Below are positions 3,205 through 45,570 of a stretch of 64,000 nt of DNA, piece after piece (the stretch's first letter is position 1; each line of letters begins with the position of its first letter). The notes beneath the pieces are model-generated. The model saw only the letters and a list, made by a program, of their open reading frames with translations. It searched no databases and was not told where the DNA came from. A program made the position numbers and the translations under genes. Origin of the DNA: an uncultured Pseudomonadota bacterium (GTDB lineage: Bacteria; Myxococcota_A; UBA796; SXON01); the NCBI GenBank assembly GCA_903885375.1, contig CAISIK010000061.1, forward strand, positions 1,224 through 65,223, read 5' to 3'.

Positions 3205-4758
3205 TCAGTCTACCCGCACGCCCCGGCGCTGCCCGTTGTCGATGACGCCGGCTTCGCGTGCGTGGGCCACCGCCAGCTCGAAGTCGTTCAGACCGAGCAG
3301 CGCGGCATCTGCCGGCTCAAAGCCGAGGTGCTTGGACCACTGTTCAACGATGTACGAAGTGGAGGCGGCGCGGTAGCTGCGGGCCAGATCGACCGGCTGG
3401 GCGCCCACGTTCAGGCTCACGACCTCGGGCGTGCCGCCGACCTCCCGCCAGGTCCACGACACTCCGGACAGCGAGAGGAAGCCCTGCTTCCCGCCGGAGT
3501 CGGCCGCGATGTTCCGCAGGACGATCCCCACCAGTTGGCTGCCGGTGATCGAGAAGAGATGCACCGGGTTCTCGAAGGGGAAGGCCTCGAAGAGGTCCCT
3601 CCGCGTGATGGGTCCGGCGCGCAGCTCGGCCCGGAGGCCGCCACCGTTGTAGATGCCGACCTCGACCTTCGCCTGTACGCGCAGCGCATCGGTGATCCAC
3701 CGGCCGAGCGCGCTCTCGTGGGCGTACTCCTTGTCGAGGGTGGCAGGCGCCTTGGCCACGACCTCGCCGTAGAGAGAGTCGATGTTGGTCTCGTAGTGGG
3801 CAGCGAGCCCCTGCAGCGAGGCGTCGGGCGGAACGGTGGCCGACTCCGGCGTGAGGTCGCGCAGCTTGTACTGGAAGCGGGAGATGGCGTCGTTCTCCAC
3901 GACCATCTCCACCACGCCGAGGCTGCGGCCGTAGCTGCCGGCCTGCACGATGTACGTGTCGCCCTGCTTGACCGCCTCGGTGAGCGGCGTGTGGCTGTGG
4001 CCGCCCACGATGAGGTCGATGCCGGGAACGGCGGCGGCGAGCTTACGATCGGCGTCGACCCCGATGTGGGTGAGGGCGACAACGAGGTCGGTCTGCGGGT
4101 CGAGCACGGCCACCTCGGCGCGCACCGCCTCGGCCACCGACATCGCGTTCATCAGGCTCCAGTCCGCCGGGGAGACGAGGCCGCGGAGCTGGTCGGTGGT
4201 GGCGCCGATCACGCCGACCCGGAGGTTGTTCACGGTGTAGATGCGGCTGAGGCCCTGGCTCGGAAACAGCGGCCCCTTCTGCCCGCCCGGGGCGCGCAGG
4301 TTGGCGCTGAGCACCGCCATCGGCGACTTCGACACCAGCACGCCGAGGTTGGACAGCCCGCGGTCGAATTCGTGGTTGCCGATGACCCAGCCGTCGTACC
4401 CGACGGCCTCCATGAAGCGGAGCATCGGGGTGCCCCAGGCGCCTTCCTCCTTCACCGCGGTGAGCGGGGTGCCGGTGAGGATGTCGCCGCCATCGAGCAG
4501 GAGCGTGTTTGCGCGGCCATTCTGCTCGCGGATCGCGCGGACCTCCTGCTCCAGCCGCACAAACCCGCCGATCTTCGGCGAGCCGGGGAGCCAGTCCGCG
4601 TGGTCGGGGAGGTAGTGGCCATGCAGATCATTGGTGTGCATCACCACGAGGTGGCCGGGCGGGACGAGCGGCGTGGGGGGCGCCTTGGGGCAGCCCACGG
4701 CGAGGAGCGAGGCCCCCGCGGTGAGCGCCAGGACCGTGAGGAACGAGCGCGCCTGCAC
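3205..4758 (-). CDS. 5'-nucleotidase / metallophosphoesterase lipoprotein (UshA-like)
   Basis: 517 aa; lipobox LLAVGC. Metallophosphoesterase motifs HTNDLHG, DGGD, GNHEFD, GGHSH, followed by a 5'-nucleotidase-type C-terminal domain. Confidence 0.85.
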   Translation of the reverse strand: MQARSFLTVLALTAGASLLAVGCPKAPPTPLVPPGHLVVMHTNDLHGHYLPDHADWLPGSPKIGGFVRLEQEVRAIREQNGRANTLLLDGGDILTGTPLTAVKEEGAWGTPMLRFMEAVGYDGWVIGNHEFDRGLSNLGVLVSKSPMAVLSANLRAPGGQKGPLFPSQGLSRIYTVNNLRVGVIGATTDQLRGLVSPADWSLMNAMSVAEAVRAEVAVLDPQTDLVVALTHIGVDADRKLAAAVPGIDLIVGGHSHTPLTEAVKQGDTYIVQAGSYGRSLGVVEMVVENDAISRFQYKLRDLTPESATVPPDASLQGLAAHYETNIDSLYGEVVAKAPATLDKEYAHESALGRWITDALRVQAKVEVGIYNGGGLRAELRAGPITRRDLFEAFPFENPVHLFSITGSQLVGIVLRNIAADSGGKQGFLSLSGVSWTWREVGGTPEVVSLNVGAQPVDLARSYRAASTSYIVEQWSKHLGFEPADAALLGLNDFELAVAHAREAGVIDNGQRRGVRVD

Positions 4759-5454
4759 CTACGCCACTCCCGCCGCGCGCTTCACCGCTGCGATCAGGGG
4801 GAACACATCGTCGTGTTCGATGACGCCGTTTTTCTTCCAGGCCACGGTGCCATCCGGCGCGTAGACGACGGTCTGGGGGATGAGCTCGCTATCGAGGCCC
4901 AGCTCCTTGAAGAGCTCGGCCGGCTCGCCCACGAAGAGCACGCTGGCGTACCCGACGCCCGCGCTGTCGGCGAACGCGGCCACCCGGGCCGCCACCTGCA
5001 CGGGATCGCCCGGGTGATCGAAGAGGTCCCAGCTCAGCCCCATGAACTCGCCGATCTCCGCCACGCCTGCGGCGGCCCGGACGAGCCGGGGGAGCTCATC
5101 CACGCAGGGGTCGCACCAGGAGGCCCAGTGGTTCACCACGAGCGGCTTGCCGTTGGGCGCGAGTGCGCGGCGCAACCCGGCGAGATCGACGGGCCGGCAC
5201 CCTTCCGCCGGCCGGGCGGTGGCGGAATTCTCCCCCTTGACCGCCGCCACGGCGCGCGTGGACGCCGCCACGGCGCGACCGGCGCCCGAAGCGGCGCTGC
5301 CCGCAGCCGCCAACAGCGTGTCGGCTGTGGGCGAAGCCCGGGGCGCGAGCGGCGGCGTGCGCGGGCGCTCGGTGGGACGTTCGAAGAGGTCGTGCTTGGC
5401 GACGAGGCGCGCAATCACCAGAGCGGCGTTTCGGCTGAAGCGGGGGAGGGGCAT
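4759..5454 (-). CDS. TlpA-like thiol:disulfide oxidoreductase (thioredoxin fold)
   Basis: 231 aa; active-site WCDPC (NHWASWCDPCVDELP); hydrophobic N-terminal anchor. Its stop codon directly abuts the start of the nucleotidase gene. Confidence 0.75.
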   Translation of the reverse strand: MPLPRFSRNAALVIARLVAKHDLFERPTERPRTPPLAPRASPTADTLLAAAGSAASGAGRAVAASTRAVAAVKGENSATARPAEGCRPVDLAGLRRALAPNGKPLVVNHWASWCDPCVDELPRLVRAAAGVAEIGEFMGLSWDLFDHPGDPVQVAARVAAFADSAGVGYASVLFVGEPAELFKELGLDSELIPQTVVYAPDGTVAWKKNGVIEHDDVFPLIAAVKRAAGVA

Positions 5455-5468
5455 CGCGGCCTAGCGTA

Positions 5469-6005
5469 TCACTCGCTCAGCGACTGCCCCTCCACGAGCG
5501 ACGTGCTGGTGTCACGAAGCCGGTGCGGGGCGCCCTGATCGGCGAGCGCATCGGCCAGCTGCTGCGTGGTGTTGCGCGCGCGCACGGTGAGGACCTTGGC
5601 GATCTGGTACACGAGCTTGTAGGCGGCGAGGTTGTCCTCCGCGAGCAGCGCCTCGAAGGCATCGCGCGGGAAGCGGAACACGGTGGTTTCCCCACGGGCC
5701 ACGACCGTGGCGCTCCGCGGCGAATGGTCGAGGATGGCCATCTCGCCGAAGCAGGCCCGGGGCCCGATCTGCGAGATCACCTTGGCGGGGCCGAAGTCGT
5801 TGGCCTTCGTGACATCGGCCGCCCCTTCGAAGATCACGTACCAGGCATCCCCCGCATCCCCCTCGCGGAAGATGGGCTGCCCGTCGCGCACGCGCCGGAC
5901 CTGCATGATGTGCACCACCTCGGAGAGCTGACCCGGATCGAGGTCGCCGAACATCGGCGCCTCCAGCAGGAAGGTGATGATCTGCTCCAGCGTGATGGTC
6001 GTCAT
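5469..6005 (-). CDS. Stand-alone cyclic-nucleotide-binding domain protein
   Basis: ATG at 6005 (MTTITLEQ); the track ORF begins at a TTG at 6023. Canonical phosphate-binding cassette FGEMAILDHSPRSATVVA; too short for an HTH or other output domain. Confidence 0.75.
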   Translation of the reverse strand: MTTITLEQIITFLLEAPMFGDLDPGQLSEVVHIMQVRRVRDGQPIFREGDAGDAWYVIFEGAADVTKANDFGPAKVISQIGPRACFGEMAILDHSPRSATVVARGETTVFRFPRDAFEALLAEDNLAAYKLVYQIAKVLTVRARNTTQQLADALADQGAPHRLRDTSTSLVEGQSLSE

Positions 6006-6076
6006 GGGCGTTTCATACCACAAGCGCGAGGACGTGGGCCCCGAACCTTGTTCGGGAAGCGTTCCGGGGCTACCCT

Positions 6077-29484: not shown

Positions 29485-31461
29485 ATGGTGATGCGCACCG
29501 GGGATACCGTTCGCGACGGGCAGGGCAATGCCTATCAAGTGGGGCAGCTCCTCGGGCGTGGCCTGTGGGGCAAGTCCTTCCTCGCCCGCCGTGAGGCGAA
29601 CGATCACCTCTACGTCCTGAAGGTGCCGCTGGCGCCGGAGGATCTGCGGGGGGATGGCGCCGCGCCGGATGTGTTCTTCAACGGCTGCCGCGAAGCGCTG
29701 ATGGAGCAGGCCCGCCTCTACGAGCAGGGCCAGCTCCCGATGCTCCCCCGCCTCGAGGCGAGGTTCACGGCGCCCGATGGCCAGCCGGCCATGCTGCTGC
29801 CGCGGCTCGGCGAATCGCTGGAGCGTCGCATCGCCGCCGGTCTTCCCGTGGGCGCGTTGATCGACGTGCTCCTGGCCGTGGCGAAAGAGGTGCGTCGCAT
29901 GCCACCGGAGAGCGCGGGTGCGCCGGGCGTGCACGGCGGCCTGCGCCCCCAGAACATCCTCTTCTCCGAGAGCGGCGAGGTGATCCTCACCGACCTCGCC
30001 ACCCCCGCCGTGCGGAAGCATGCCGCGGCGTGCAGCCACCTCCTCCCGGGCGGGAACCCCTGGTTGCCGCCCGAGATCGTTGGCGCGAACAGCCCCACCG
30101 TGTGGTCCCCCGCGGTGGACACCTGGGCGCTGGCCATGATCCTCTGGCGAGGCGTGGTGGGCCCGGAGCAGCCGGTGGCCTGGCCCGCGCGCGGGCTCGA
30201 CAAGGGCGCGGTCAGCGCGGTGAAGGACCGCCTGATCGACCGGATGAAGACCGAGGACAGCAACCCGCGCTTCCATGGCCGCCTCGCCGAACGGTTCGGC
30301 GTGCTCCTCTCTCGCGCGCTGTCGCTCGAGGTCGCGCCCTCGCCGCCCTACCGCTTCGTGCGGCTCGACGAGTTCGAGCAGCGCCTCGAAGAGCTCGCCG
30401 CGCTCGTGCGCCCGCAGGTCACCAACGTGGGCAAGGTGCTGCACGAGCGGCCGCCTTCGCGCCCGTGGTTCAGCACCGACGAGGCGGTGAGCTTCTCGGT
30501 CACCGTGGGCGCCACGGCGGGTGTGGAAGGGCGCGATGAGATCGGCGTGGGCATCGCGGTGTTCGACCTCGCGAAGGACGAGCGCGTGAAGTCGCTCGAC
30601 CTCGGCTACACCGCCGACAAGCACTCCTCCGGTCGTTACCGCTTCGCGTTCAAGGTGAACGGCCTCACCCCCGGGCCCTACCGCGCCCGGGTGGCGTTCG
30701 CGATCCGGGACAGCGGGCAGCCGCCCGCCACGGCCGAGACCGAGTTCGAAGTGCGCGCCGCCCCCGGGTGGGTGCCGCCGGCCGAGCCTCCGCCCACCGG
30801 TCAGCCCCTGCAGTTCCAGCGGGAGCACACCCAGGCCACCGTGCCGCGCATGGAGCCGGCCGATCCCAGCGTCACGCCCGCGATGGGAACGGTGATTCCG
30901 CCCCGCTTCGATGCGCCCGCGGCCAGCCCGCCGCCCGGTTCGACACCGACCGCGCCGCCCTTCCCGAGCGCGCCGCGGTGGTCGCCGCCCGTGCCCGATT
31001 CGGCGGTTGGTAGCGGCGATACGCTCGTGCCCGCGCTGCGCGTCGAGCCGGCGGAGGAGCCCGCGCCCACCCCGCTGCGCGTGCCGAAGCCGCTGCTGCC
31101 CCCCTCGATGGATGCGCCCGAGCCCGTGGCGCCCCCGCGGGCGCCGATCGCGCCCGCCCCGATCGCCACCCCGCTGCCTCCTGCGCCGGCCGCCATGGGC
31201 GGCCCCTCGGCACCGGAGGAGCCCGTGTTCGAGCCCCCCCGGAACTGGACCTACGAGCCCATCCCCCGGGCGAAGGCCACCACTTCCGCCCAGCGCGAAG
31301 AAGACCCGCCCTCGCAGATCGAGCCCGAGGAGGACGGCGAGCCAGGCCCGATCCAGCGCTTCTTCGAGAGCGCGAAGAACGATCCCTTCGTGCTGGTGAT
31401 GGTGTCCCTCGGCGCCCTCAGTCTCGCCCTCGTCATCGTGTACCTCGTCATTCGGAGCTGA
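29485..31461 (+). CDS. Tail-anchored Ser/Thr-kinase-like protein (predicted pseudokinase)
   Basis: 658 aa. Gly-loop GRGLWG, VAIK-like YVLKV, DFG-like TDLA and APE-like PPE are present, but the HRD box reads HGGLRPQN (29932-29940). Followed by a beta-rich middle region, a Pro-rich segment and a terminal TM helix FVLVMVSLGALSLALVIVYLVI. Confidence 0.75.
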   Translation: MVMRTGDTVRDGQGNAYQVGQLLGRGLWGKSFLARREANDHLYVLKVPLAPEDLRGDGAAPDVFFNGCREALMEQARLYEQGQLPMLPRLEARFTAPDGQPAMLLPRLGESLERRIAAGLPVGALIDVLLAVAKEVRRMPPESAGAPGVHGGLRPQNILFSESGEVILTDLATPAVRKHAAACSHLLPGGNPWLPPEIVGANSPTVWSPAVDTWALAMILWRGVVGPEQPVAWPARGLDKGAVSAVKDRLIDRMKTEDSNPRFHGRLAERFGVLLSRALSLEVAPSPPYRFVRLDEFEQRLEELAALVRPQVTNVGKVLHERPPSRPWFSTDEAVSFSVTVGATAGVEGRDEIGVGIAVFDLAKDERVKSLDLGYTADKHSSGRYRFAFKVNGLTPGPYRARVAFAIRDSGQPPATAETEFEVRAAPGWVPPAEPPPTGQPLQFQREHTQATVPRMEPADPSVTPAMGTVIPPRFDAPAASPPPGSTPTAPPFPSAPRWSPPVPDSAVGSGDTLVPALRVEPAEEPAPTPLRVPKPLLPPSMDAPEPVAPPRAPIAPAPIATPLPPAPAAMGGPSAPEEPVFEPPRNWTYEPIPRAKATTSAQREEDPPSQIEPEEDGEPGPIQRFFESAKNDPFVLVMVSLGALSLALVIVYLVIRS

Positions 31462-33773: not shown

Positions 33774-34744
33774 GAGGGTTCGGCCTGGGCCCAGGTGCAG
33801 ACGGACACGCCGGCCACCACATGGCTGCGTTCGGCCGGGGCAAGCACGAACCCGCGCGAATCGGCCACCACCTCCTCCAGCAGAACGCCGGAAAAGCCGC
33901 GCACCTCGGCCACCACCTGCCCGCGCTCCAGAAGCACGCCCGCGCGCGTACGCGGCAGCAGCAGTCCGGTCGTGCTCGCGCGGGGACCGTTCTCGCGGCG
34001 CCACGGCCCGCCGGGTACGCGCTGGGGGTGGGCGGCCGACGGAGAGGCGAGCATGCCGAGGCTGGTGAGGGTGCCGAGGACGGCGCGCACCGTGAGGTCC
34101 ACAGCGTCGGGGTCGAGCACGAGGCGGGGGCCGGCTTCGATGGTGACCGCGGGAATCCGCAGGCGGTTGAGCGCGGCGCCCGACAGGCTGCGATCGAGCC
34201 GGAAGCGGAGGTAGCGGTCGTCGGGGTATTCGTTGACGACGGTGAGGCCGGTGGCCTCGGCGGCCGACAGCGAGGCGGCTTCGAGCGTGCGGCGGGGCTC
34301 GCCCTTGAGGGAGGCCGCGCGGTCCACCAGCGCGTAGGGCAGCGCCCCGGGGGCATCGGCGTGCAGATCGACGAGCAAGTCGGGTTGGCGGGCCGCGATG
34401 TCGGTCCACGCGGCGTGGGCGAGGCGCTCGGCGGGCGTGCCCGCGGGATCGCCCGGGAACTGGCGGTTGAGGTCCTGGTCATCCTCGGGGACGCGGCGCA
34501 CGCGCCGCTCGAGCCCGTCGGGGTTCAAGCTCGGGTAGATGTGCACGGCGCCGTGCAGGAGCTCCGACTCGAGGATCGGCAGGAGGCGCAACGCCGCGCC
34601 CGACCCGGTGCACTCATCGCCGTGCACGTTGGCGGTGACGACCACGACGGGGCCACGCTCGGCGCGGGTGTGCGGGGTGACGGTGACCACGTAGAGGTCG
34701 CCGCCGCGCCCGCCGTAGCTCACCCGCGAAACGCTGCGCGGCAT
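33770..34744 (-). CDS. Succinylglutamate desuccinylase/aspartoacylase-family (M14-like) zinc deacylase
   Basis: 324 aa from ATG 34744 (TGATG overlap). Zn motif NVHGDECTG, plus LNRQFPG and DLHAD blocks typical of the AstE/AspA family. Confidence 0.7.
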   Translation of the reverse strand: MPRSVSRVSYGGRGGDLYVVTVTPHTRAERGPVVVVTANVHGDECTGSGAALRLLPILESELLHGAVHIYPSLNPDGLERRVRRVPEDDQDLNRQFPGDPAGTPAERLAHAAWTDIAARQPDLLVDLHADAPGALPYALVDRAASLKGEPRRTLEAASLSAAEATGLTVVNEYPDDRYLRFRLDRSLSGAALNRLRIPAVTIEAGPRLVLDPDAVDLTVRAVLGTLTSLGMLASPSAAHPQRVPGGPWRRENGPRASTTGLLLPRTRAGVLLERGQVVAEVRGFSGVLLEEVVADSRGFVLAPAERSHVVAGVSVCTWAQAEPS

Positions 34745-35961
34745 CAGTCGGCCTCCATGACCCAGAACTTCAGGTAGCGGCTCTCGGGGAAGTGCAGCGC
34801 GGCGGGATGGTCCGGGCCGGTGGTGCCCTCGTGGATCAGCCTGAGCCGGCGCTCGGCGCGGTCGGCGCCTTCGGCGAGCGCAGCGCCGAAGTGTTTGGGG
34901 GACTGCGTGCCGAGGTTGCTCGCGGCGATGAGCCAGCCACCGGGTTCGAGCACGCGCAGGCAGGCGGCCGACAGCCGCGGCCACTCCTTTTCGCCCTGCC
35001 ACACCCCCGCCTCGCTGTGGCTGTACCCGGGCGGGTCGACCACCACCCGGTCGAACTTCCGGCCCTGGCGGCGGAGGCGATCGAGCGTCTTGAACACATC
35101 CTCCGCGTAGAGCTCGCCGGGGTCGAGCTCGTTGAGCTCGAAGTTGCGGCGCATGCGCGCGAGGTAGGCCTCCGAGAGGTCCACGCTCACCACCTCGGCG
35201 GCGCCGTGCGTCCGCGCGCTCACCGAGAAGGCGCCGGTGTGCGCGAAGAGGTTCAACACCCGGGTGCCCTTCCAGTGGGGCGCGAGCCAGGCGCGGTTCT
35301 GGCGCATGTCGGTGAAGAGGCCGGCGTCCTTGCCGAGCGAGGGGCGCACCTCGTAGGCGAGGCCCAGCTCGCGCACGGTGACATCCTCGGGGCCGGCGCC
35401 GAAGAGCCGGCGGGGAGGGGGGAGGCGCCCGGCGGTGTCGCGCGGGTCGCGCCGCTCGGCCAGCCACGCGCCGGTCAGCCCGGGCACCTGCTCGCGGAGG
35501 GCGGCGGCGAGCTGCCCCGCGAGGTCCACCAGCGAGGCGCTGTCCACGCTCACTACGAGCTCGGGGCCCCAGCGGTCGGCCCGGAGGCCGGGCAGGTCGT
35601 CGCTCTCGGCGTTGACGAGCCGAAGGGCGGTGGTGTCGGCGTCGACGTGCGCGCGCGCGCGGAGCGTGGCGACCACGCGCTCGGCGAGCCAGGCGGAATC
35701 GAGCGGGCCGGGGGTGGTGCGGAAGCGGCGGGCCGCGATCCAGCCGGTGTCGGCGATGGCGGTGCCGAGGCTCGAGCCGCCCTCGCCGCGGAGCTCCACG
35801 GCTTCCCCCGGGCGCGCCCGGCCGCGCACGACCTCGGCGGGGTACACCCAGGGAAAGCCGCGCTTCAGCCACCCCGTGCTGTAGGCATTCACCACCAGCC
35901 CGCTGGCCGAGCTACGATCGGCCTCGGCAGGGAGCCTCGGAGTGGAACGACCGCCCTTCAT
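34744..35961 (-). CDS. rlmI: 23S rRNA m5C methyltransferase (RlmI-like, PUA + class I SAM MTase)
   Basis: 405 aa; N-terminal LKRGFPWVY (PUA-like); SAM-binding VLNLFAHTGAFSV and catalytic VVDPPGYS. Confidence 0.8.
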   Translation of the reverse strand: MKGGRSTPRLPAEADRSSASGLVVNAYSTGWLKRGFPWVYPAEVVRGRARPGEAVELRGEGGSSLGTAIADTGWIAARRFRTTPGPLDSAWLAERVVATLRARAHVDADTTALRLVNAESDDLPGLRADRWGPELVVSVDSASLVDLAGQLAAALREQVPGLTGAWLAERRDPRDTAGRLPPPRRLFGAGPEDVTVRELGLAYEVRPSLGKDAGLFTDMRQNRAWLAPHWKGTRVLNLFAHTGAFSVSARTHGAAEVVSVDLSEAYLARMRRNFELNELDPGELYAEDVFKTLDRLRRQGRKFDRVVVDPPGYSHSEAGVWQGEKEWPRLSAACLRVLEPGGWLIAASNLGTQSPKHFGAALAEGADRAERRLRLIHEGTTGPDHPAALHFPESRYLKFWVMEAD

Positions 35962-37277: not shown

Positions 37278-37781
37278 TCAGATCAGGCTGCCGCCCGGGA
37301 TCGAGGCGGCCACATCCTCGGCCGTGAGGGTGGCGAGCCCGGCCAGCTCGGCGATGCGGTGGTTGGTGGCGCGCAGATCGCGCACCAGCTGCCGGCAGAC
37401 GAGCATGAGGAAGCGGGCGCCCAGCGGCGTGGAGGCTTCCGTGAGGCGCTGGAAGTCTTCCGCGGTGATCTCGAGCACGCGGGCTTCGGTGACGGCCCGG
37501 CAGGAAACGGCGCGCGTGCCCCCATCCAGGAGCGCGATCCCGCCGAAGATGGCGCCGCGCGAGAGCAGGCCGAGGCTGGTGCGGTTGCCACCCGGCAGGC
37601 GGCGGATGACCTCGACCTCGCCGCTGTAGAGCACGTAGGCGGCGCGGGCGCGTTCGGCCTGCTCGATGATCGTGCTCTCAGGCGGAAAGACCAGCGTGCG
37701 GCAGATGCCATCGAGCAGCGCGAGGTCGTGATCCGGGAACTCGGCGAAGTCGGGCAGGTTGCGGAGGGGAGAGGGGCTCAT
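37278..37781 (-). CDS. Stand-alone cNMP-binding domain protein (degenerate phosphate-binding cassette)
   Basis: 167 aa; CAP effector-domain pattern, but the cassette reads FGGIALLDGGTRAVS (Glu replaced by Gly). No HTH. ATGA overlap with the upstream gene. Confidence 0.7.
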   Translation of the reverse strand: MSPSPLRNLPDFAEFPDHDLALLDGICRTLVFPPESTIIEQAERARAAYVLYSGEVEVIRRLPGGNRTSLGLLSRGAIFGGIALLDGGTRAVSCRAVTEARVLEITAEDFQRLTEASTPLGARFLMLVCRQLVRDLRATNHRIAELAGLATLTAEDVAASIPGGSLI

Positions 37782-38293
37782 CGGGTGATCTTCTCCCGTG
37801 AATCGGCCAGATCGCGGCGGAGGTTCACGCCTTCGCCGGTGAGGAGCCGGTCGAGCTTGGTCTCGAGCTCGCGGAGGCGGCCGCAGACCTGGAGCGAAAC
37901 GGTGCGGAGGATGCCGCTCGCGGCCGGGTGGCCCGCGGCGAGGAGGTCGGCGAAGGCGTGGGCATCGATGTTGAGCACCACGGTTTCTTCGATGGCGGTG
38001 GCGGTGGCGGCGCGCGGCGCGGGGTCGATCAGTGCCATCTCACCGATGAGCGCGCCGGAAGCCACGCTCGCCACGACGAGGTCGGGCCCGTCGGGCACCG
38101 ACACGGAAATCTGGACGAGGCCGCTCACCACGATGGTGACGCTGTCCGCGAACTCCCCCTCGCTGAAGATGCGCATGCCGGGCTTGTAGCGGAGCCCCAT
38201 GCAGCGGGAGGCGAGCGCCACGGCTTCCTCGCTGCCCAGCGAGCTGAAGACCGGAAGGCGGCGCAGGAGGTTGGCGAGTTCCTGGTAGGGCAT
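37778..38293 (-). CDS. Stand-alone cNMP-binding domain protein
   Basis: 171 aa from ATG 38293 (MPYQELANLL), 1 nt after the cyclase stop. Cassette IGEMALIDPAPRAATATA (R-A-A instead of R-S/T-A). No output domain. Confidence 0.75.
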   Translation of the reverse strand: MPYQELANLLRRLPVFSSLGSEEAVALASRCMGLRYKPGMRIFSEGEFADSVTIVVSGLVQISVSVPDGPDLVVASVASGALIGEMALIDPAPRAATATAIEETVVLNIDAHAFADLLAAGHPAASGILRTVSLQVCGRLRELETKLDRLLTGEGVNLRRDLADSREKITR

Positions 38294-38294
38294 G

Positions 38295-39839
38295 TCAGGG
38301 TCCAGCTTCGCGAAGGGCGACGACCGTGGTCCCCACGAGGATGGCATCGCCCACGTGGACGGTGCGCGCGCTCGGGAGTCGGGAGACGGTGCCTTCGGCG
38401 GTGAGGAGGAGCGTGGGGCAGGTTTCGTGCAGCGGGATGACCACGATGCCGCCTCCGCCCGCTTCGACGGCGGTCTGGCGCCGGCCGGTGAGCGACTTGT
38501 CCATCGTGAATCCCTTTTCGCGGGCCCGTGCGGCCCGCGGCCCGGCACACCAGCGGATGTTGTCCTGGCTGTTGCGGTCGGGCAGCAGCAGACCGGGATG
38601 CGCAGGCTCGCGGCCCAGCTCCACCCGCTCACCCAGGCCCACGCCGCGGTGCATGGGCGAATCGCCCACGAGCGCGCCCATGAACCCATCCACCGAGAAG
38701 GCGTGGTAGCGCATCGGCCCGAGGTGGGTCTGCACCATGCTGCCCGGGCGAAGCGGCCAGGTGGTCTGGATGCCGGCGTGCTGGCCATCCACCGACACCC
38801 CGGGCGCGAGGATGGTGAGTCCGACACCGGACTGCGACACATCGAGCCGCAGCACGGCCCGCTCGCTGCGGTTCACCCAGCGGCCATCGGGCAGCAGATC
38901 GTAGCTGTAGCCAGCCACCACCTCCGCGAAGGGCACGGCCGGCAGGCAGACCCCGGCGATGACGAGGTTGAAGATCGCGGCGCCGCCGGCATCGAGGATG
39001 ATGGTGTCGCTGCCGAGCGCCCGCTGCAGCGGGGCGGCGTAGCGGGCCACGGTGGCGGTGAGGGCCTCGGCGGTGGTGACCACGAGCCCGCGGCCGTGCT
39101 GCGCCCACTCGATGCGCTCGGCCGGCCCGATGTGGTGGGCCTGCAGCCAGATGTGCGACGGGTCGAGCACCGGGAGGGCATCCACAGCCTGGGAGAGCGA
39201 GGCGCTCCCGGGCTGGAAGCCGACGAGCACGATGTGGCCGTTGGCCGGCGCGCTGGGAACAGGGTCGCCTTCGTTCCAGACCACCAGGCGGCTGGTGCGG
39301 ACGGCCGCCACGAGCGGGTCGGGCAGGGCGCAGTGGTGCCGGGCCACGGCCCGGAAGACCTCGACCTCGCCGGGGATGCCCTTGAGCACGTGCCGGCCGG
39401 TGGACTCCCAGGGAATCTCGGCCTGGTTCATGCAGTGCCACGTGCCGGCGGAAATCCAGACCTCGCCCGCAGGAATACGGGCGTTGATCCGCGCCGAGAG
39501 GTTCACCGTTTCGCCGAAGGCGTCGTTGTCGGTCTCTTCGACATCGCCCGTGGCGCACGATGCACGGAAGGTGACCCCGGCGCTGGCCTGGGGCGGGTGG
39601 GCCTCGATGAGGTCGAGGCAGGCCCGAACGGCATCGGTGGCCGTGTCGAACAAGGCCATGAACGAATCGCCGATGCCCTTCACAACGCGACCGCCGCGCG
39701 CGATGAGCACGGGCTCCACCATCGCCTGGTGACGCTGCAGGAGGGCGCGGAGCTCCTCACGGTCGCTCTTCACCACCGACTTGGTGTAGTCGGCCATGTC
39801 GGTGAAAACCACCGTCTTGGTGCGCGTACGCAGCTCCAC
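38295..39839 (-). CDS. Class III adenylate/guanylate cyclase with unknown middle region and FHA-like C-terminus
   Basis: 514 aa; GTG start. Cyclase motifs VVFTDMADYT, KGIGDSFMALF, GETVNLSARI. The C-terminal ~110 aa (LGREP...TGRRQTAVE...VHVGDAILVGTTVVAL) resemble an FHA domain. Confidence 0.8.
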   Translation of the reverse strand: MELRTRTKTVVFTDMADYTKSVVKSDREELRALLQRHQAMVEPVLIARGGRVVKGIGDSFMALFDTATDAVRACLDLIEAHPPQASAGVTFRASCATGDVEETDNDAFGETVNLSARINARIPAGEVWISAGTWHCMNQAEIPWESTGRHVLKGIPGEVEVFRAVARHHCALPDPLVAAVRTSRLVVWNEGDPVPSAPANGHIVLVGFQPGSASLSQAVDALPVLDPSHIWLQAHHIGPAERIEWAQHGRGLVVTTAEALTATVARYAAPLQRALGSDTIILDAGGAAIFNLVIAGVCLPAVPFAEVVAGYSYDLLPDGRWVNRSERAVLRLDVSQSGVGLTILAPGVSVDGQHAGIQTTWPLRPGSMVQTHLGPMRYHAFSVDGFMGALVGDSPMHRGVGLGERVELGREPAHPGLLLPDRNSQDNIRWCAGPRAARAREKGFTMDKSLTGRRQTAVEAGGGGIVVIPLHETCPTLLLTAEGTVSRLPSARTVHVGDAILVGTTVVALREAGP

Positions 39840-40008
39840 CGTTCTTCCCTCAGCCTCGCCGGCTTATCGCCTCGGGCCCCTCCCGTCGAACGTCTCCGGC
39901 CGGGTAGGGCGGATATGCCTCCGGGCCAGCGGCCGTCGATGTTTGCAACCGCCGTGGACATCGGGTGACGGACATCTTGTCACGACCTCGACCACCTCTC
40001 TTGCCAAC

Positions 40009-40040
40009 TTGACAAGGTGGCGGAACGATCGCAAATTATC
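40009..40040 (+). promoter_or_regulatory. Candidate promoter elements upstream of gspC
   Basis: TTGACA at 40009-40014 with weak -10 candidates (CAAATT / AATTAT). It overlaps a sigma-54-like TGGCGG-N5-TCGCA (40018-40033) with correct GG/GC spacing. The region is AT-richer. Confidence 0.2.
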
Positions 40041-40093
40041 AAGCTGATTCGAGCACTCGGCAGCCGGCATGGTTCTTGCTATTCTTGACGCCG

Positions 40094-41029
40094 ATGCGTT
40101 TCCCTCCTGAACTCACTCGCCTCCGAGCCCTCATGGCCCTGGGCGTTTCCCTCGTGGTGGGCCTCGCCGCCGGCACGGGGGCGAACGTATTCGCGGGCAC
40201 CCGGCTCACCCTCCCGGATGATGTCACGCTGCCCGAGTACACCGATGCTCCCGTGGCCGAGGCCGGGGAGGGGAGCGTGGCTGCCCCGGTGGAAGAGAGC
40301 GGGAGCGCGGAAGAATCCGCCCCGCTCGTGGCCGATCGTCGCCTCTACAACGATGCGATCGTGCGGCGGAACATCTTCGATTCGGCCGCCACTCCCTCCG
40401 AAACGGTGGCCAACGCCGGCTCGCAGGACTGCAAGGAGAGCGGCTCGCGGCTGCTCGCCACGGTCGTGGCCGACCTCCCCGAGTACTCGAGCGCGCTCAT
40501 CGGCGGCAGCGGCAAGTCCGGCCGCGCCCTCGGCTACAAGGTGGGCGACTCGGTGGGTTCCGAGGGCCGCATCGTGGCCATCGAGCAGAAGAAGGTCTGT
40601 CTCGACGCAGGCGGCTGCATCTGCATGGGCGAGAATGCCAGGTTGGCGGAAGCCGGCCCCACCGCCGAAGCGGGCGCCGAGGACTCGGGCGGGGTCACCA
40701 AGCTCTCCGACACCAAGTTCCTCGTGGATCGGTCCTTCCTCGAGAAGCAGCTCGGCAACGTGGAAACGCTCGCCTCCCAGATCCGGGCCTCGCCCAAGAC
40801 CGAGGATGGCCAGATTGTCGGGTTCCGCCTCTCCGCCATCCGCAAGGGGAGCGTGTTCGACAAGCTGGGCATCAAGAACGGGGACGTCGTGCACAACGTG
40901 AACGGCCAGGCCCTCACGAGCATGGAAACGGCCATGGGGGTCTACGGCTCCCTCCAGAACGAACGCGGCTTCAACTTCGAAGTGACGCGCCGCAACCAGA
41001 AGATGACGATCGAGTACGAGGTTCGCTGA
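40094..41029 (+). CDS. gspC: Type II secretion system protein C (PDZ-containing)
   Basis: ATG 40094 (MRFPPELTRLRALMALGVSLVV TM anchor). C-terminal PDZ-like GFRLSAIRKGSVFDKLGIKNGDVVHNVNG. TGATG overlap with gspD. Confidence 0.75.
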   Translation: MRFPPELTRLRALMALGVSLVVGLAAGTGANVFAGTRLTLPDDVTLPEYTDAPVAEAGEGSVAAPVEESGSAEESAPLVADRRLYNDAIVRRNIFDSAATPSETVANAGSQDCKESGSRLLATVVADLPEYSSALIGGSGKSGRALGYKVGDSVGSEGRIVAIEQKKVCLDAGGCICMGENARLAEAGPTAEAGAEDSGGVTKLSDTKFLVDRSFLEKQLGNVETLASQIRASPKTEDGQIVGFRLSAIRKGSVFDKLGIKNGDVVHNVNGQALTSMETAMGVYGSLQNERGFNFEVTRRNQKMTIEYEVR

Positions 41030-43860: not shown

Positions 43861-45570
43861 ATGGCGGTTCGTCGGGAGGGAATGGAGGAGCTGCTCCTTC
43901 GCGGTGGCGCCGATGCCGGCCGCCTTCGCGATGCGCGCAAGGAGTCCCAACGAGGGGGCGTGAGCCTGCTCGAAGGCATCCAGCGCACCCAGGCGGTGCC
44001 GTCGGAGCAGGTGGGCCGCGCGCTCGCCGAGATGCTCGGGCTCCCCTACCGCGAGTCGATCGACCACGAGGCCGTCGAGGTGGAGCTGGTGCGGCCGATC
44101 TCGCTGGCCATGGCCCGCGAGGAGGGTTTCCTCCCCTGCTGGCGCGAGGGCGCCTTCGTGCGCGTGGCCATCGCCGATGGTCGCGCCGTGGGCGTGCTCG
44201 AGGACCTGCGCCTGCTCTACCGCACGCCGGTGCGCGCCTTCGTGGTGTCGGCCGATGTGCTCCGCAACGCCACCAACAAGGCCTACGACCGCGCCTCCCG
44301 CAGCGCGTCGGCCACCCTCGAGGGCATCATCGAGGATGGCCTCGAGCAGGAGGATGGCGACCTCAACCTCACCGGCGACATCGTCGACGACCCGAACCAG
44401 GCGCCGATCATCAAGTTCGTGAACTCGCTCCTGAGCCAGGCGGTGAAGGACCGCGCGAGCGACATCCACATCGAGCCCTTCGAGAAGGAGCTCGTGGTGC
44501 GCTTCCGCATCGACGGCGTGCTCTACGAGATCGTGAAACCGCCGCCCAAGCTGCAGGCCAGCATCGTGAGCCGCGTGAAGATCATGGCGGGGCTCAACAT
44601 CGCGGAGAAGCGCATCCCGCAGGATGGTCGCATCCGCACCCGTTTTGCCGGCCGCGAGATCGACCTTCGTGTGTCGACCCTGCCCGTCCGCCACGGCGAG
44701 CGCGTGGTGATGCGTATTCTCGAGAAGGGGACGGTGTTCTCGCTCGACGGCGTGGGCATGGGCGCCGACACCGTCGCGCTGTTCCGCGAGGTCATCTCCC
44801 GTCCGCACGGCATCGTGCTCGTGACCGGCCCCACCGGCTCCGGCAAGACCACCACGCTGTACTCGGCGCTCGCCGAGATCAACGCGCCGGACCTCAACAT
44901 CCTCACCATCGAGGACCCGATCGAGTACGAGCTGCGCGGCATCGGCCAGACCCAGGTGAACCCGAAGATCGACCTCACGTTCGCTTCGGCGCTCCGCGCC
45001 CACCTCCGCCAGGACCCCGACGTCATCCTCGTGGGCGAAATCCGCGACAAGGAAACGGCCGACAACGCCGTTCAGGCCTCGCTCACCGGTCACCTCGTGT
45101 TCAGCACGCTGCACACGAACGACGCGGCCACGGCCTTCACCCGGCTCATCGACATGGGCGTGGAGAAGTTCCTCGTCACCAGCTCGCTGCTCGCGGTGCT
45201 GGCGCAACGCCTCGTCCGTCGGTTGTGTCCGCAGTGCAAGGTCGCCTACACGCCCTCGGAGGGCGAGCTGGCGGAAGCCGGCGTGGAACGCGGCCGTTTC
45301 CACGGCCACACCGTTTACAAGGCGGTGGGGTGTCCCGCCTGCCTGATGACCGGGTACAAGGGGCGAACCGGCATCTACGAGTTCCTCTCGGTGGCCGACG
45401 AAATTCGCGAGCTCGTACTCAAGAACGTGCCCGCAAACCTCGTTTCGCGCCGCGCGCGCGAGCTCGGCATGCGGTCGTTGCGGGATGACGGCATGCGCGT
45501 GGTTGCCGAAGGGCGCACCTCGCTCGACGAGGTGATGCGCGTCACCCAGATCGACGTACAGGGGGCCTGA
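43861..45570 (+). CDS. gspE: Type II secretion ATPase
   Basis: 569 aa; Walker A GPTGSGKTTT, Asp/His boxes, tetracysteine CPQC...CPAC. Confidence 0.95.
   Translation: MAVRREGMEELLLRGGADAGRLRDARKESQRGGVSLLEGIQRTQAVPSEQVGRALAEMLGLPYRESIDHEAVEVELVRPISLAMAREEGFLPCWREGAFVRVAIADGRAVGVLEDLRLLYRTPVRAFVVSADVLRNATNKAYDRASRSASATLEGIIEDGLEQEDGDLNLTGDIVDDPNQAPIIKFVNSLLSQAVKDRASDIHIEPFEKELVVRFRIDGVLYEIVKPPPKLQASIVSRVKIMAGLNIAEKRIPQDGRIRTRFAGREIDLRVSTLPVRHGERVVMRILEKGTVFSLDGVGMGADTVALFREVISRPHGIVLVTGPTGSGKTTTLYSALAEINAPDLNILTIEDPIEYELRGIGQTQVNPKIDLTFASALRAHLRQDPDVILVGEIRDKETADNAVQASLTGHLVFSTLHTNDAATAFTRLIDMGVEKFLVTSSLLAVLAQRLVRRLCPQCKVAYTPSEGELAEAGVERGRFHGHTVYKAVGCPACLMTGYKGRTGIYEFLSVADEIRELVLKNVPANLVSRRARELGMRSLRDDGMRVVAEGRTSLDEVMRVTQIDVQGA

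Follow-up and report, generated by a model that had tools for sequence, protein, structure and literature searches.

A predicted adenylyl cyclase with an FHA-derived regulatory module and two stand-alone cyclic nucleotide-binding proteins in an uncultured Myxococcota lineage

The closest described enzymes to the one reported here are the mycobacterial class IIIc cyclases (Ma1120/Rv1120c-type, Rv1264 and Rv1900c/LipJ), soluble proteins in which a catalytic fold of ~160 residues is joined to an appended regulatory domain, a pH-sensing N-domain in Rv1264 and a lipase domain in Rv1900c. Combinations of FHA and cyclase-type domains are also already known: Synechocystis Cya1 is said to be an FHA-containing class III cyclase, and an FHA structure is available for the Chlamydia CT664 'adenylate cyclase-like protein' (PDB 3gqs), in both cases with an FHA domain that matches the Pfam model and lies N-terminal to the catalytic domain. 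In Bdellovibrio the FHA-GGDEF diguanylate cyclase DgcB (PDB 6hbz, 6hc1), with the FHA residues R61, S75, R76, T96 and N97, is activated by a self-derived phospho-Thr tail bound to its FHA domain (PMC6733907). On the receptor side, one report cites CbpA as a second, non-Vfr cyclic AMP (cAMP) effector in Pseudomonas aeruginosa (PMC11139211); CbpA and the structural-genomics cyclic nucleotide-binding (CNB) proteins 3gyd and 5d1i carry CAP-type domains without a DNA-binding output. Here we analyse a three-gene operon on the minus strand of a 64,000-nucleotide stretch of contig CAISIK010000061.1 from an uncultured Myxococcota bacterium (the window), in which known parts of this kind are combined anew, together with a previously unannotated FHA-derived regulatory module. 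We put at roughly 70% the probability that the operon is a cytoplasmic module of a cAMP synthase plus its receptors, held in the conserved core genome of an uncultured Myxococcota lineage. Its genes, which encode the cyclase and two proteins that bind cyclic nucleoside monophosphates (cNMPs), are as follows, with the catalytic domain of the first:

38295-39839, minus strand: gene 1, 514 aa, GTG start and TGA stop, predicted multidomain soluble class III adenylyl cyclase
37778-38293, minus strand: gene 2, 171 aa, stand-alone cNMP-binding protein
37278-37781, minus strand: gene 3, 167 aa, stand-alone cNMP-binding protein
39345-39839, minus strand: cyclase homology domain of gene 1, class IIIc-like, residues 1-165, from Pfam PF00211, Foldseek and alignment to Ma1120

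The GTG start of gene 1 is preceded by GAGGGAAG, its junction with gene 2 reads TGA-C-ATG (1-nt gap) and the junction of genes 2 and 3 reads ATGA (4-nt overlap). Re-reading the open-reading frames and junctions bore out the operon as it had been drawn in a first-pass annotation of this DNA, made from the sequence alone, and the same three genes were called independently in the metagenome annotation of the identical contig. The window has a GC content of 70.8%, and at ~71% GC spurious long open-reading frames are frequent. Despite this the three minus-strand frames are real genes, because their GC content at third codon positions (GC3) is 0.90-0.92, the range expected for real genes here, they carry Pfam domains above curated thresholds, and the independent gene call agrees. 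No terminator-like site was seen inside the operon, and pncB converges on it 13 nt past gene 3. Taken as a whole, the first-pass annotation was largely correct and is partly confirmed in what it observed, and its interpretation is supported in part, as set out below.

The sole Pfam match on gene 1 is Guanylate_cyc (PF00211; residues 8-162, 39.7 bits against a cut-off of 21.9). The AlphaFold model of the protein has a mean predicted local distance difference test score (pLDDT) of 87, and Foldseek matches its cyclase domain to Ma1120, Rv1900c and Rv1264 with TM-scores of 0.88-0.92 and root-mean-square deviations (rmsd) of 1.7-2.2 A, at 22-27% identity to the mycobacterial enzymes. The metal ligands are Asp14 (FTD) and Asp58 (GDSF), placed by a HMMER alignment to Ma1120, the substrate pair is Lys54 (four residues before Asp58) and Asp106 (seven before Asn113), and the transition-state residues are Asn113 and Arg117 (four past Asn113), together with Lys153-Gly154; the six catalytic residues, including the Lys/Asp adenine pair, are those of the mycobacterial cyclases. 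D14, K54, D58, D106, N113, R117 and K153 are invariant in 36 homologues sharing 48-85% identity with the window protein, and the intact N-terminal class III cyclase that the first-pass annotation had recognised from its motifs is thus upheld. As the metal-binding Asp pair and the transition-state Asn and Arg all occur in one chain, the set is homodimer-competent. In class III cyclases a Lys/Asp pair directs the enzyme to ATP and a Glu/Cys-type pair to GTP, a rule with which the Ma1120 'KDA to EGY' conversion entries among the Foldseek matches agree. Given Lys54 and Asp106, ATP is the predicted substrate and cAMP should be the product of what we predict to be a homodimeric, catalytically complete adenylyl cyclase; the earlier suggestion that the module is tuned to a ligand other than cAMP draws no support from the synthase side.

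We treat the enzyme as soluble on the strength of the model, because its single hydrophobic stretch (residues 287-305, Kyte-Doolittle (KD) value 2.06) forms a beta-strand there, and distant homologues are hydrophilic at this place. A membrane anchor at these residues was ruled out, the strand being confident (pLDDT >90) and containing a Pro-x-x-Pro motif (LPAVP). An alternating basic/Thr strand, R-T-R-T-K-T, stands at the N-terminus (residues 5-9; 39813-39827), in which Thr7 never varies and conservation of Thr5 and Thr9 is 90% or higher, and which is not common to other class III cyclases. Unlike in the mycobacterial class IIIc enzymes the catalytic domain here is N-terminal, and the 350-residue module behind it has no counterpart among them.

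The cyclase family is widespread. When one genome of each species was scanned, 118 loci encoding it came to light, of which the best 80 were analysed, and neighbours were tallied in the 75 loci with enough flank on the relevant side, by tblastn with the neighbouring genes of the window and by phmmer on downstream open-reading frames. The family thus occurs in at least 118 species-level genomes, all of them metagenome-assembled genomes, most labelled Myxococcota or Deltaproteobacteria and many from freshwater metagenomes. A locus of Myxococcota type also turned up in records labelled Klebsiella pneumoniae, Enterobacteriaceae and Alphaproteobacteria (L005, L009, L010, L016, L032 and others), where the taxonomy is evidently wrong. 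Behind the cyclase, a pair of a gene 2-type and then a gene 3-type protein is found in 23 of the 75 loci, always in this order and less than 100 nt apart, and its recurrence in several deep clades agrees with the idea of a self-contained second-messenger operon, made up of a synthase and two receptor-like proteins without a helix-turn-helix (HTH). In two loci (L059, 10001-13146; L062, 10001-13154) a second full-length cyclase paralogue, of ~40% identity to the query, stands in place of the pair.

The two small proteins differ mainly in their phosphate-binding cassettes:

38003-38047, minus strand: gene 2 cassette, residues 83-97, GEMALIDPAPRAAT, canonical
37503-37547, minus strand: gene 3 cassette, residues 79-93, FGGIALLDGGTRAVS, without the Glu

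As first described, genes 2 and 3 are single CAP-type domains: cNMP_binding (PF00027) scores 75.3 bits in gene 2 and 71.3 bits in gene 3 against a cut-off of 27.5, Pfam found no HTH in either, and both end 45-50 residues past the cassette. Their matches to the CRP model cover only positions ~19-142 of ~214, without a CRP/FNR HTH, and both, at 29% mutual identity, have a long helix at the C-terminus, in alignment with the helix through which CRP dimerises. Both had been called degenerate receptors, which is true of gene 3 and not of gene 2. The gene 2 cassette follows G-E-M-[AS]-...-P-R-[AS]-A-[ST] in 26 of 26 orthologues. Its PRAAT is also the cassette of PKA RI-alpha and aligns with PRTAT of a solved CRP-type domain, and the cassette could likewise be aligned to PKA-R domains. 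By alignment, then, the gene 2 cassette is canonical and of PKA type, and gene 2 should bind cAMP. In gene 3 the cassette Glu is gone from all 25 orthologues (G, S, A, T, L, V, I or D instead) and the Arg is kept in 23; in register with the CRP of T. thermophilus (FGEMSLLDEGERSAS), Gly81 replaces the Glu. Epac-type domains have the cassette Glu replaced and still bind cAMP, and because of this precedent we call gene 3 a systematically altered receptor, judged from its orthologues, and not a proven dead one.

A tentative alternative is that gene 3 is a non-binding pseudo-receptor with a structural role, for example in a heterodimer with gene 2 formed by way of the CRP-like C-helix; the two proteins would then make up one asymmetric sensor. 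The universal loss of the Glu would fit, as would the loss of the Arg as well in two orthologues (L049, L068), the fixed gene order, the translational coupling of genes 2 and 3, and a long C-terminal helix of CRP-dimerisation type in both proteins. P. aeruginosa CbpA, too, reportedly combines a functional with a degenerate CAP domain, a pairing of canonical and variant domain that resembles this one, with the difference that genes 2 and 3 encode two individual proteins, translationally coupled and located immediately behind the gene for their presumed synthase. The Arg and the Gly/Ala framework retained in 23 of 25 orthologues nevertheless suggest that phosphate binding persists, and the Epac-type domains argue in the same direction, and we regard a pseudo-receptor as possible and a systematically altered receptor as the preferred reading of gene 3.

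The canonical cNMP protein with which these cassettes had been compared does carry the cassette described (CFGEMAILDHSPRSAT), but its gene, given as 5469-6005, lies on the minus strand, at 5469-6023. It is the third stand-alone cNMP-binding gene of the window and stands at the upstream end of a minus-strand stretch (3205-6023), before an AhpC/redoxin-like gene (4759-5454) and a Metallophos/5'-nucleotidase-C gene of UshA/CpdB-like type (3205-4758, minus strand), and the three may form another small nucleotide-signalling unit.

Behind its catalytic domain, gene 1 contains the following parts:

39030-39320, minus strand: alpha/beta domain, residues ~174-270, modelled confidently
38985-39029, minus strand: linker, residues 271-285, carrying GSDT(I)I(L)D as a conserved motif
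38652-38984, minus strand: first beta-rich domain, residues 286-396, strands with pLDDT ~90 and an invariant VVAGYSYDLLPDGRW motif
38298-38651, minus strand: divergent domain of predicted FHA fold, residues 397-514 (~118 residues), from Foldseek, an insert-deleted profile and sub-threshold Pfam matches
38490-38576, minus strand: Arg-rich two-helix insert of 29 residues, 422-450, RNSQDNIRWCAGPRAARAREKGFTMDKSL, in the FHA beta4-beta5 loop

Gene 1 has more than 400 matches among database proteins, and of the matches listed the complete ones are nearly all of ~510 aa and align over their full length, with only the PF00211 annotation on them; by this comparison the last ~350 residues are a conserved module absent from Pfam. 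AlphaFold models of the full-length protein and of residues 171-514 (pLDDT 84-87) split the region into four parts, the last of which is a second beta-sandwich (residues 397-511). For the alpha/beta domain there was no Pfam match at E<=10 and no PDB sequence match, for the first beta-rich domain no PDB profile match, and for the ~230 residues between cyclase and FHA as a whole no match to known domains was found. The idea that the first beta-rich domain is a duplicated FHA was dropped as unproven, hhalign between the two beta regions giving probabilities of 0.7-2%, which are not significant. The linker is the sole low-confidence segment of gene 1, and its Thr279 is invariant although pLDDT falls below 50 in both models; distant, large homologues retain a similar [ST]-[IV]-[IVL]-[PL]-[DE] motif. 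This GSDTIILD motif of gene 1 could serve as a phospho-acceptor or as a docking strand.

These large homologues emerged when 1.84 billion representative proteins were searched with a profile built on residues 171-514; only 149 matched, mostly the cyclase family or its fragments. About 25 of the 149 were proteins of 555-1130 aa covering only profile positions ~103-340, that is the linker motif and both beta domains, and they keep a PDR...NI.W element. Pfam, run on ten of them (the P0199-P0268 set), found no domain in eight and an N-terminal zf-HC2 anti-sigma zinc finger in two. One large homologue (from the set of loci L082, L084 and L085) is divergent to a gene for an extracytoplasmic function (ECF) sigma factor, and another is followed by a small, weakly PP2C-like gene.

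The top 50 PDB matches of the model of residues 171-514 in Foldseek are all FHA domains, whose fold is an eleven-strand beta-sandwich, with a probability of 1.0 and modest E-values (3e-4 to 1e-2), the best being FhaA 3oun (TM-score 0.76, rmsd 2.2 A) and the others including DgcB, GarA, OdhI, EmbR, APLF and Ki67. With the native sequence, Pfam searches of the C-terminal 344 and 119 residues gave no match at E<=10, FHA included, and a PDB profile search with the native C-terminal alignment gave none either. Pfam misses the fold because a conserved 29-residue insert interrupts it; residues 422-450 are the most conserved stretch of the whole protein in the 36-homologue alignment and are modelled with helices at 434-441 and 446-450. 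We removed these residues from single sequences and from a ten-sequence family profile. As single sequences, two of ten homologues then matched FHA (14.4 bits against 20.7) and Yop-YscD_cpl (18 bits against 33.2), both below threshold, and the profile hit five PDB sequences, all of them FHA, with ArnA 5a8i (E=2e-4) and 8s05 (E=2.7e-4) at the top and 3gqs and APLF among the weaker matches. Because this insert-deleted alignment fixes the FHA register, residues 397-514 are, by model and profile, an FHA homologue. The FHA-like C-terminus of the first-pass annotation therefore stands as a fold, and it stays below the Pfam threshold that the Guanylate_cyc and cNMP_binding domains of the operon exceed. 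Compared with Cya1 and CT664, this domain belongs to a separate, unannotated family.

The register sets GRE(410) against the FHA Gly-Arg, L-T-G452-R453-R-Q455 against v-S-R-x-H, and E-T473-C474-P-T against S-T-N-G-T. Arg410 and Arg453 are kept, and both are invariant; the canonical Ser has become an invariant Gly452, the Asn a near-invariant Cys474 and the His mostly Gln455 (His in a few). The residue set with which FHA domains bind phosphothreonine is thus incomplete, and the 29-residue insert directly precedes the Ser position. Because the changes of Ser to Gly and Asn to Cys, along with the Arg-rich insert, remodel the ligand face, the domain probably reads something other than a standard phosphothreonine peptide, or reads one in a non-standard way. 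A regular-expression search for canonical FHA domains in the loci of the relatives found one only.

It is doubtful, then, that the C-terminal domain is a working phosphothreonine reader, in which a kinase would phosphorylate a Thr such as Thr279, the phosphorylated residue would be bound in cis or across the dimer, and the cyclase would be switched. The fold is that of FHA domains, R410 and R453 (beside the Ser position) are invariant, the invariant Thr of the low-confidence linker is followed by hydrophobic residues in a motif that distant homologues keep, one of which adjoins the PP2C-like gene, and DgcB is a precedent for an FHA-regulated nucleotide cyclase (PMC6733907). The phosphate-contacting Ser and the Asn of the NG motif are nonetheless lost, the structural His is mostly so, the insert fills the same loop, the Pfam FHA score is below threshold and, across the 80 loci, no kinase or phosphatase recurs as a neighbour. 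The link from an FHA domain to Ser/Thr phosphorylation that had been proposed for this operon hence keeps its fold, and the case for ordinary phosphothreonine signalling is weakened. Within the window, a gene ~8 kb from the operon (29485-31461, plus strand, 658 aa) has a sub-threshold protein kinase match (PF00069, 29.3 against 31.7 bits).

DgcB is alike in fusing an FHA fold, itself among our Foldseek matches, to a nucleotide cyclase, and its phospho-Thr tail offers a possible model for the Thr279 linker motif. By analogy, a Thr motif in a disordered segment ahead of an FHA-derived unit brings to mind the phospho-tails that DgcB, GarA and OdhI themselves bind, which we take as a lead only. 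The two proteins differ in that DgcB's FHA domain is N-terminal, compact and consensus, with a GGDEF output, whereas that of gene 1 is C-terminal, holds the 29-residue insert, is without the Ser and Asn, and is separated by two further domains from a class III cyclase.

The operon diverges from a gene of the type II secretion system (T2SS), and the first-pass annotation had suggested from this position that it regulates secretion. The features concerned are:

39840-40093, between the divergent genes: intergenic region of 254 nt, 61.8% GC, common to gene 1 and gspC
40094-41029, plus strand: gspC, NCBIfam GspC_delta 189 bits against a cut-off of 150, head of the divergent T2SS operon
39965-39983, plus strand: box A, GTGACGGACATCTTGTCAC, core GACA-N3-TGTC, unique in the window, in the gsp promoter region
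40009-40022, plus strand: box B, TTGACAAGGTGGCG, ~78 nt ahead of the gspC ATG; 40 bp separate this degenerate second copy from box A

The identity of gspC is confirmed, as is the AT-richer character of the shared region (61.8% against 70.8% GC in the window); aligning the relatives gives the strongest support to the ATG at 40094 (MRFPPELTRL) as its start, and behind gspC follow gspD, E, F, G, H/I-type pseudopilins, J, K and an L-like gene. A divergent gspC adjoins the cyclase in 31 of the 75 loci, over a range of cyclase identity that extends from 86% to 47%. Both flanks were available in 71 loci, of which 16 have gsp and the cNMP pair, 14 gsp only, 4 the pair only and 37 neither, so that the pair is kept in 16 of 30 gsp-adjacent and 4 of 41 non-adjacent loci (Fisher p=1e-4, uncorrected for phylogeny). 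On a neighbour-joining tree built from the cyclase, several deep clades contain the state with both gsp and the pair, so that this is probably the ancestral arrangement, lost repeatedly.

In the remaining 44 of the 75 loci gsp does not adjoin the cyclase, and the gene divergent to it on the upstream side is pdxJ, gltX or another housekeeping gene; thiC, a topoisomerase and genes of that sort lie close by. Ahead of gsp, the neighbour that accompanies the cyclase most constantly is a gene for an RlmI-like 23S rRNA C5-methyltransferase (34744-35961 in the window, minus strand), found in 61 of 80 loci. It lies close to the cyclase in differing arrangements, upstream or downstream. The remainder of the window consists of housekeeping genes. 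Conservation of gene order with gsp thus holds as adjacency and fails as obligate linkage: as judged from these loci the association is long-lived and not obligatory, and because the RlmI-like gene is more constant than gsp and the other neighbours are housekeeping genes, synteny here is not function-specific.

Two blocks conserved in the intergenic region of nine close relatives resolve, over all loci, into two 13-bp palindromes of the form TGACA-N3-TGTCA, with 40-43 bp from centre to centre; the pair lies upstream of gspC in 30 of 35 gspC-containing loci. Over the 1.35 Mb of locus sequence, such boxes with at most one mismatch number only 56. The pair still fronts gspC in loci that have 2-9 kb between gspC and the cyclase (L038 at 8264/8307, L046 at 15867/15907, L079 at 19327/19367), and in loci without gsp it is absent upstream of the cyclase, except in L055, where only ~480 nt of upstream sequence is available and an adjacent gspC is possible. 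A full palindrome away from gspC occurs in the 1.35 Mb only at L022 3679, just past the cyclase stop. The arms of the boxes are conserved in sequence, their spacer is variable and the intergenic region matches no Rfam family, because of which the pair is probably a protein-binding operator of the gsp operon, and where gspC is adjacent it may co-regulate the cyclase operon. It travels with gspC, and so far as the loci tell it is not evidence for control of secretion by the cyclase.

No consensus sigma-70 promoter or terminator was found in the 254-nt region, and three other candidates were rejected there. An RNA element has no Rfam match, and conserved arms with a variable spacer are unlike a hairpin; a sigma-54 promoter upstream of gspC fits GG-N10-GC in the window and not in close relatives; and a CRP site read as GTGAC-N9-GTCAC has the wrong spacing and is confined to the near clade, the more deeply conserved TGACA-N3-TGTCA pair being preferred. 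The CRP consensus itself is TGTGA-N6-TCACA. We found no literature on the TGACA-N3-TGTCA motif or on a link between a Myxococcota cyclase and the T2SS.

From these data it is unlikely that the module is a dedicated regulator of the adjacent T2SS, with cAMP acting through the small receptors on gsp expression or on the machinery. The long-lived divergent adjacency, the probable ancestry of the state with gsp and the pair, the preferential retention of the pair beside gsp, and the conserved dual operator in the common intergenic region all favour such a regulator. In the control of secretion genes by CRP or Vfr, too, a cAMP signal stands beside a secretion operon, and genes 2 and 3 can be aligned with CRP over their N-domain and C-helix; the boxes before gspC differ from the CRP consensus. 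Against a dedicated regulator, housekeeping genes take the place of gsp in more than half of the loci and the RlmI-like gene is the more constant neighbour, the receptors have no HTH with which to bind DNA, and the boxes go with gspC and not with the cyclase, so that the proposal of secretion control is left with position as its only argument. The T2SS ATPase GspE (43861-45570, plus strand) has an MshEN N-domain (PF05157, E=2e-8). MshEN-type domains bind c-di-GMP in other systems, and this would be a different possible nucleotide input to the secretion system.

A more specific version, in which a local cAMP circuit tunes the T2SS post-translationally, seems to us quite improbable. Here the FHA-derived sensor, shared by this cyclase and the large anti-sigma-like proteins, would read a phospho-signal or some other signal by its Arg-rich face, perhaps with Thr279 involved, and so set cAMP, and the receptor pair would dock on a Gsp component; if true, it would be the first cAMP-to-T2SS pathway without a transcription factor. 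An anti-phage system of Pycsar type, or other signalling by a non-cAMP cyclic nucleotide (cCMP, cUMP or another), can be excluded for practical purposes: Pycsar also has a cyclase gene followed by genes for cNMP-binding-domain proteins, PADLOC gives weak matches to PycC (E ~3e-3) and to the cNMP part of PycTIR effectors, and the gene 3 cassette is non-canonical, but the matches cover only generic cyclase and cNMP portions (the unrelated cNMP protein at 5469-6023 scores alike), the small proteins are both without a TIR or transmembrane effector domain, the cyclase carries the purine-type, adenine-specifying Lys/Asp pair, and the operon is a stable core-genome block among housekeeping genes in at least 118 species and not a variable defence island.

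Several points weigh against our reading of the operon as a cAMP synthase with its receptors. Cyclase activity, nucleotide specificity and ligand binding are predictions; the cNMP pair is missing from 52 of the 75 loci, which makes the cyclase independent of these receptors; and, as the Glu is replaced in Epac too, its change in gene 3 cannot be read as a loss of binding. In gene 1, predicted template modelling (pTM) scores of only 0.54-0.62 mean that the models do not fix the arrangement of the domains, and two of the four C-terminal parts had no fold match in the profile and PDB searches. If the reading is right, a gene 1 homodimer, with the fold and the residues of an adenylyl cyclase, would convert ATP to cAMP, and its output would probably be set by the 350-residue C-terminal module of alpha/beta, linker, beta-rich and FHA-fold parts. 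The translationally coupled, HTH-less products of genes 2 and 3 would be local cAMP receptors, gene 2 binding cAMP through its canonical cassette and gene 3, which keeps the Arg and has lost the ribose-contacting Glu, binding it more weakly or differently, or serving as a partner of gene 2. As an output domain is absent from both and the CRP-like C-helix is retained, any output would run through protein-protein contacts with a target. The divergent position of gspC looks ancestral and repeatedly broken, and would not by itself prove control of secretion.

None of these findings overturns current understanding. Bacterial cAMP signalling is known nearly all via transcription factors of the CRP type, and a cyclase with HTH-less receptors points to outputs at the level of proteins. 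The analysis further brings to light an FHA-derived module that lacks annotation, has a conserved insert and a conserved linker motif, and recurs in large uncharacterised proteins. The family offers a clean comparative system of at least 118 species, with a fixed gene order, a canonical and an altered receptor, and lineages that have lost the receptors. The dual operator before gsp across this Myxococcota lineage may be the most directly testable result, and would give a handle on the regulation of secretion in uncultured bacteria.

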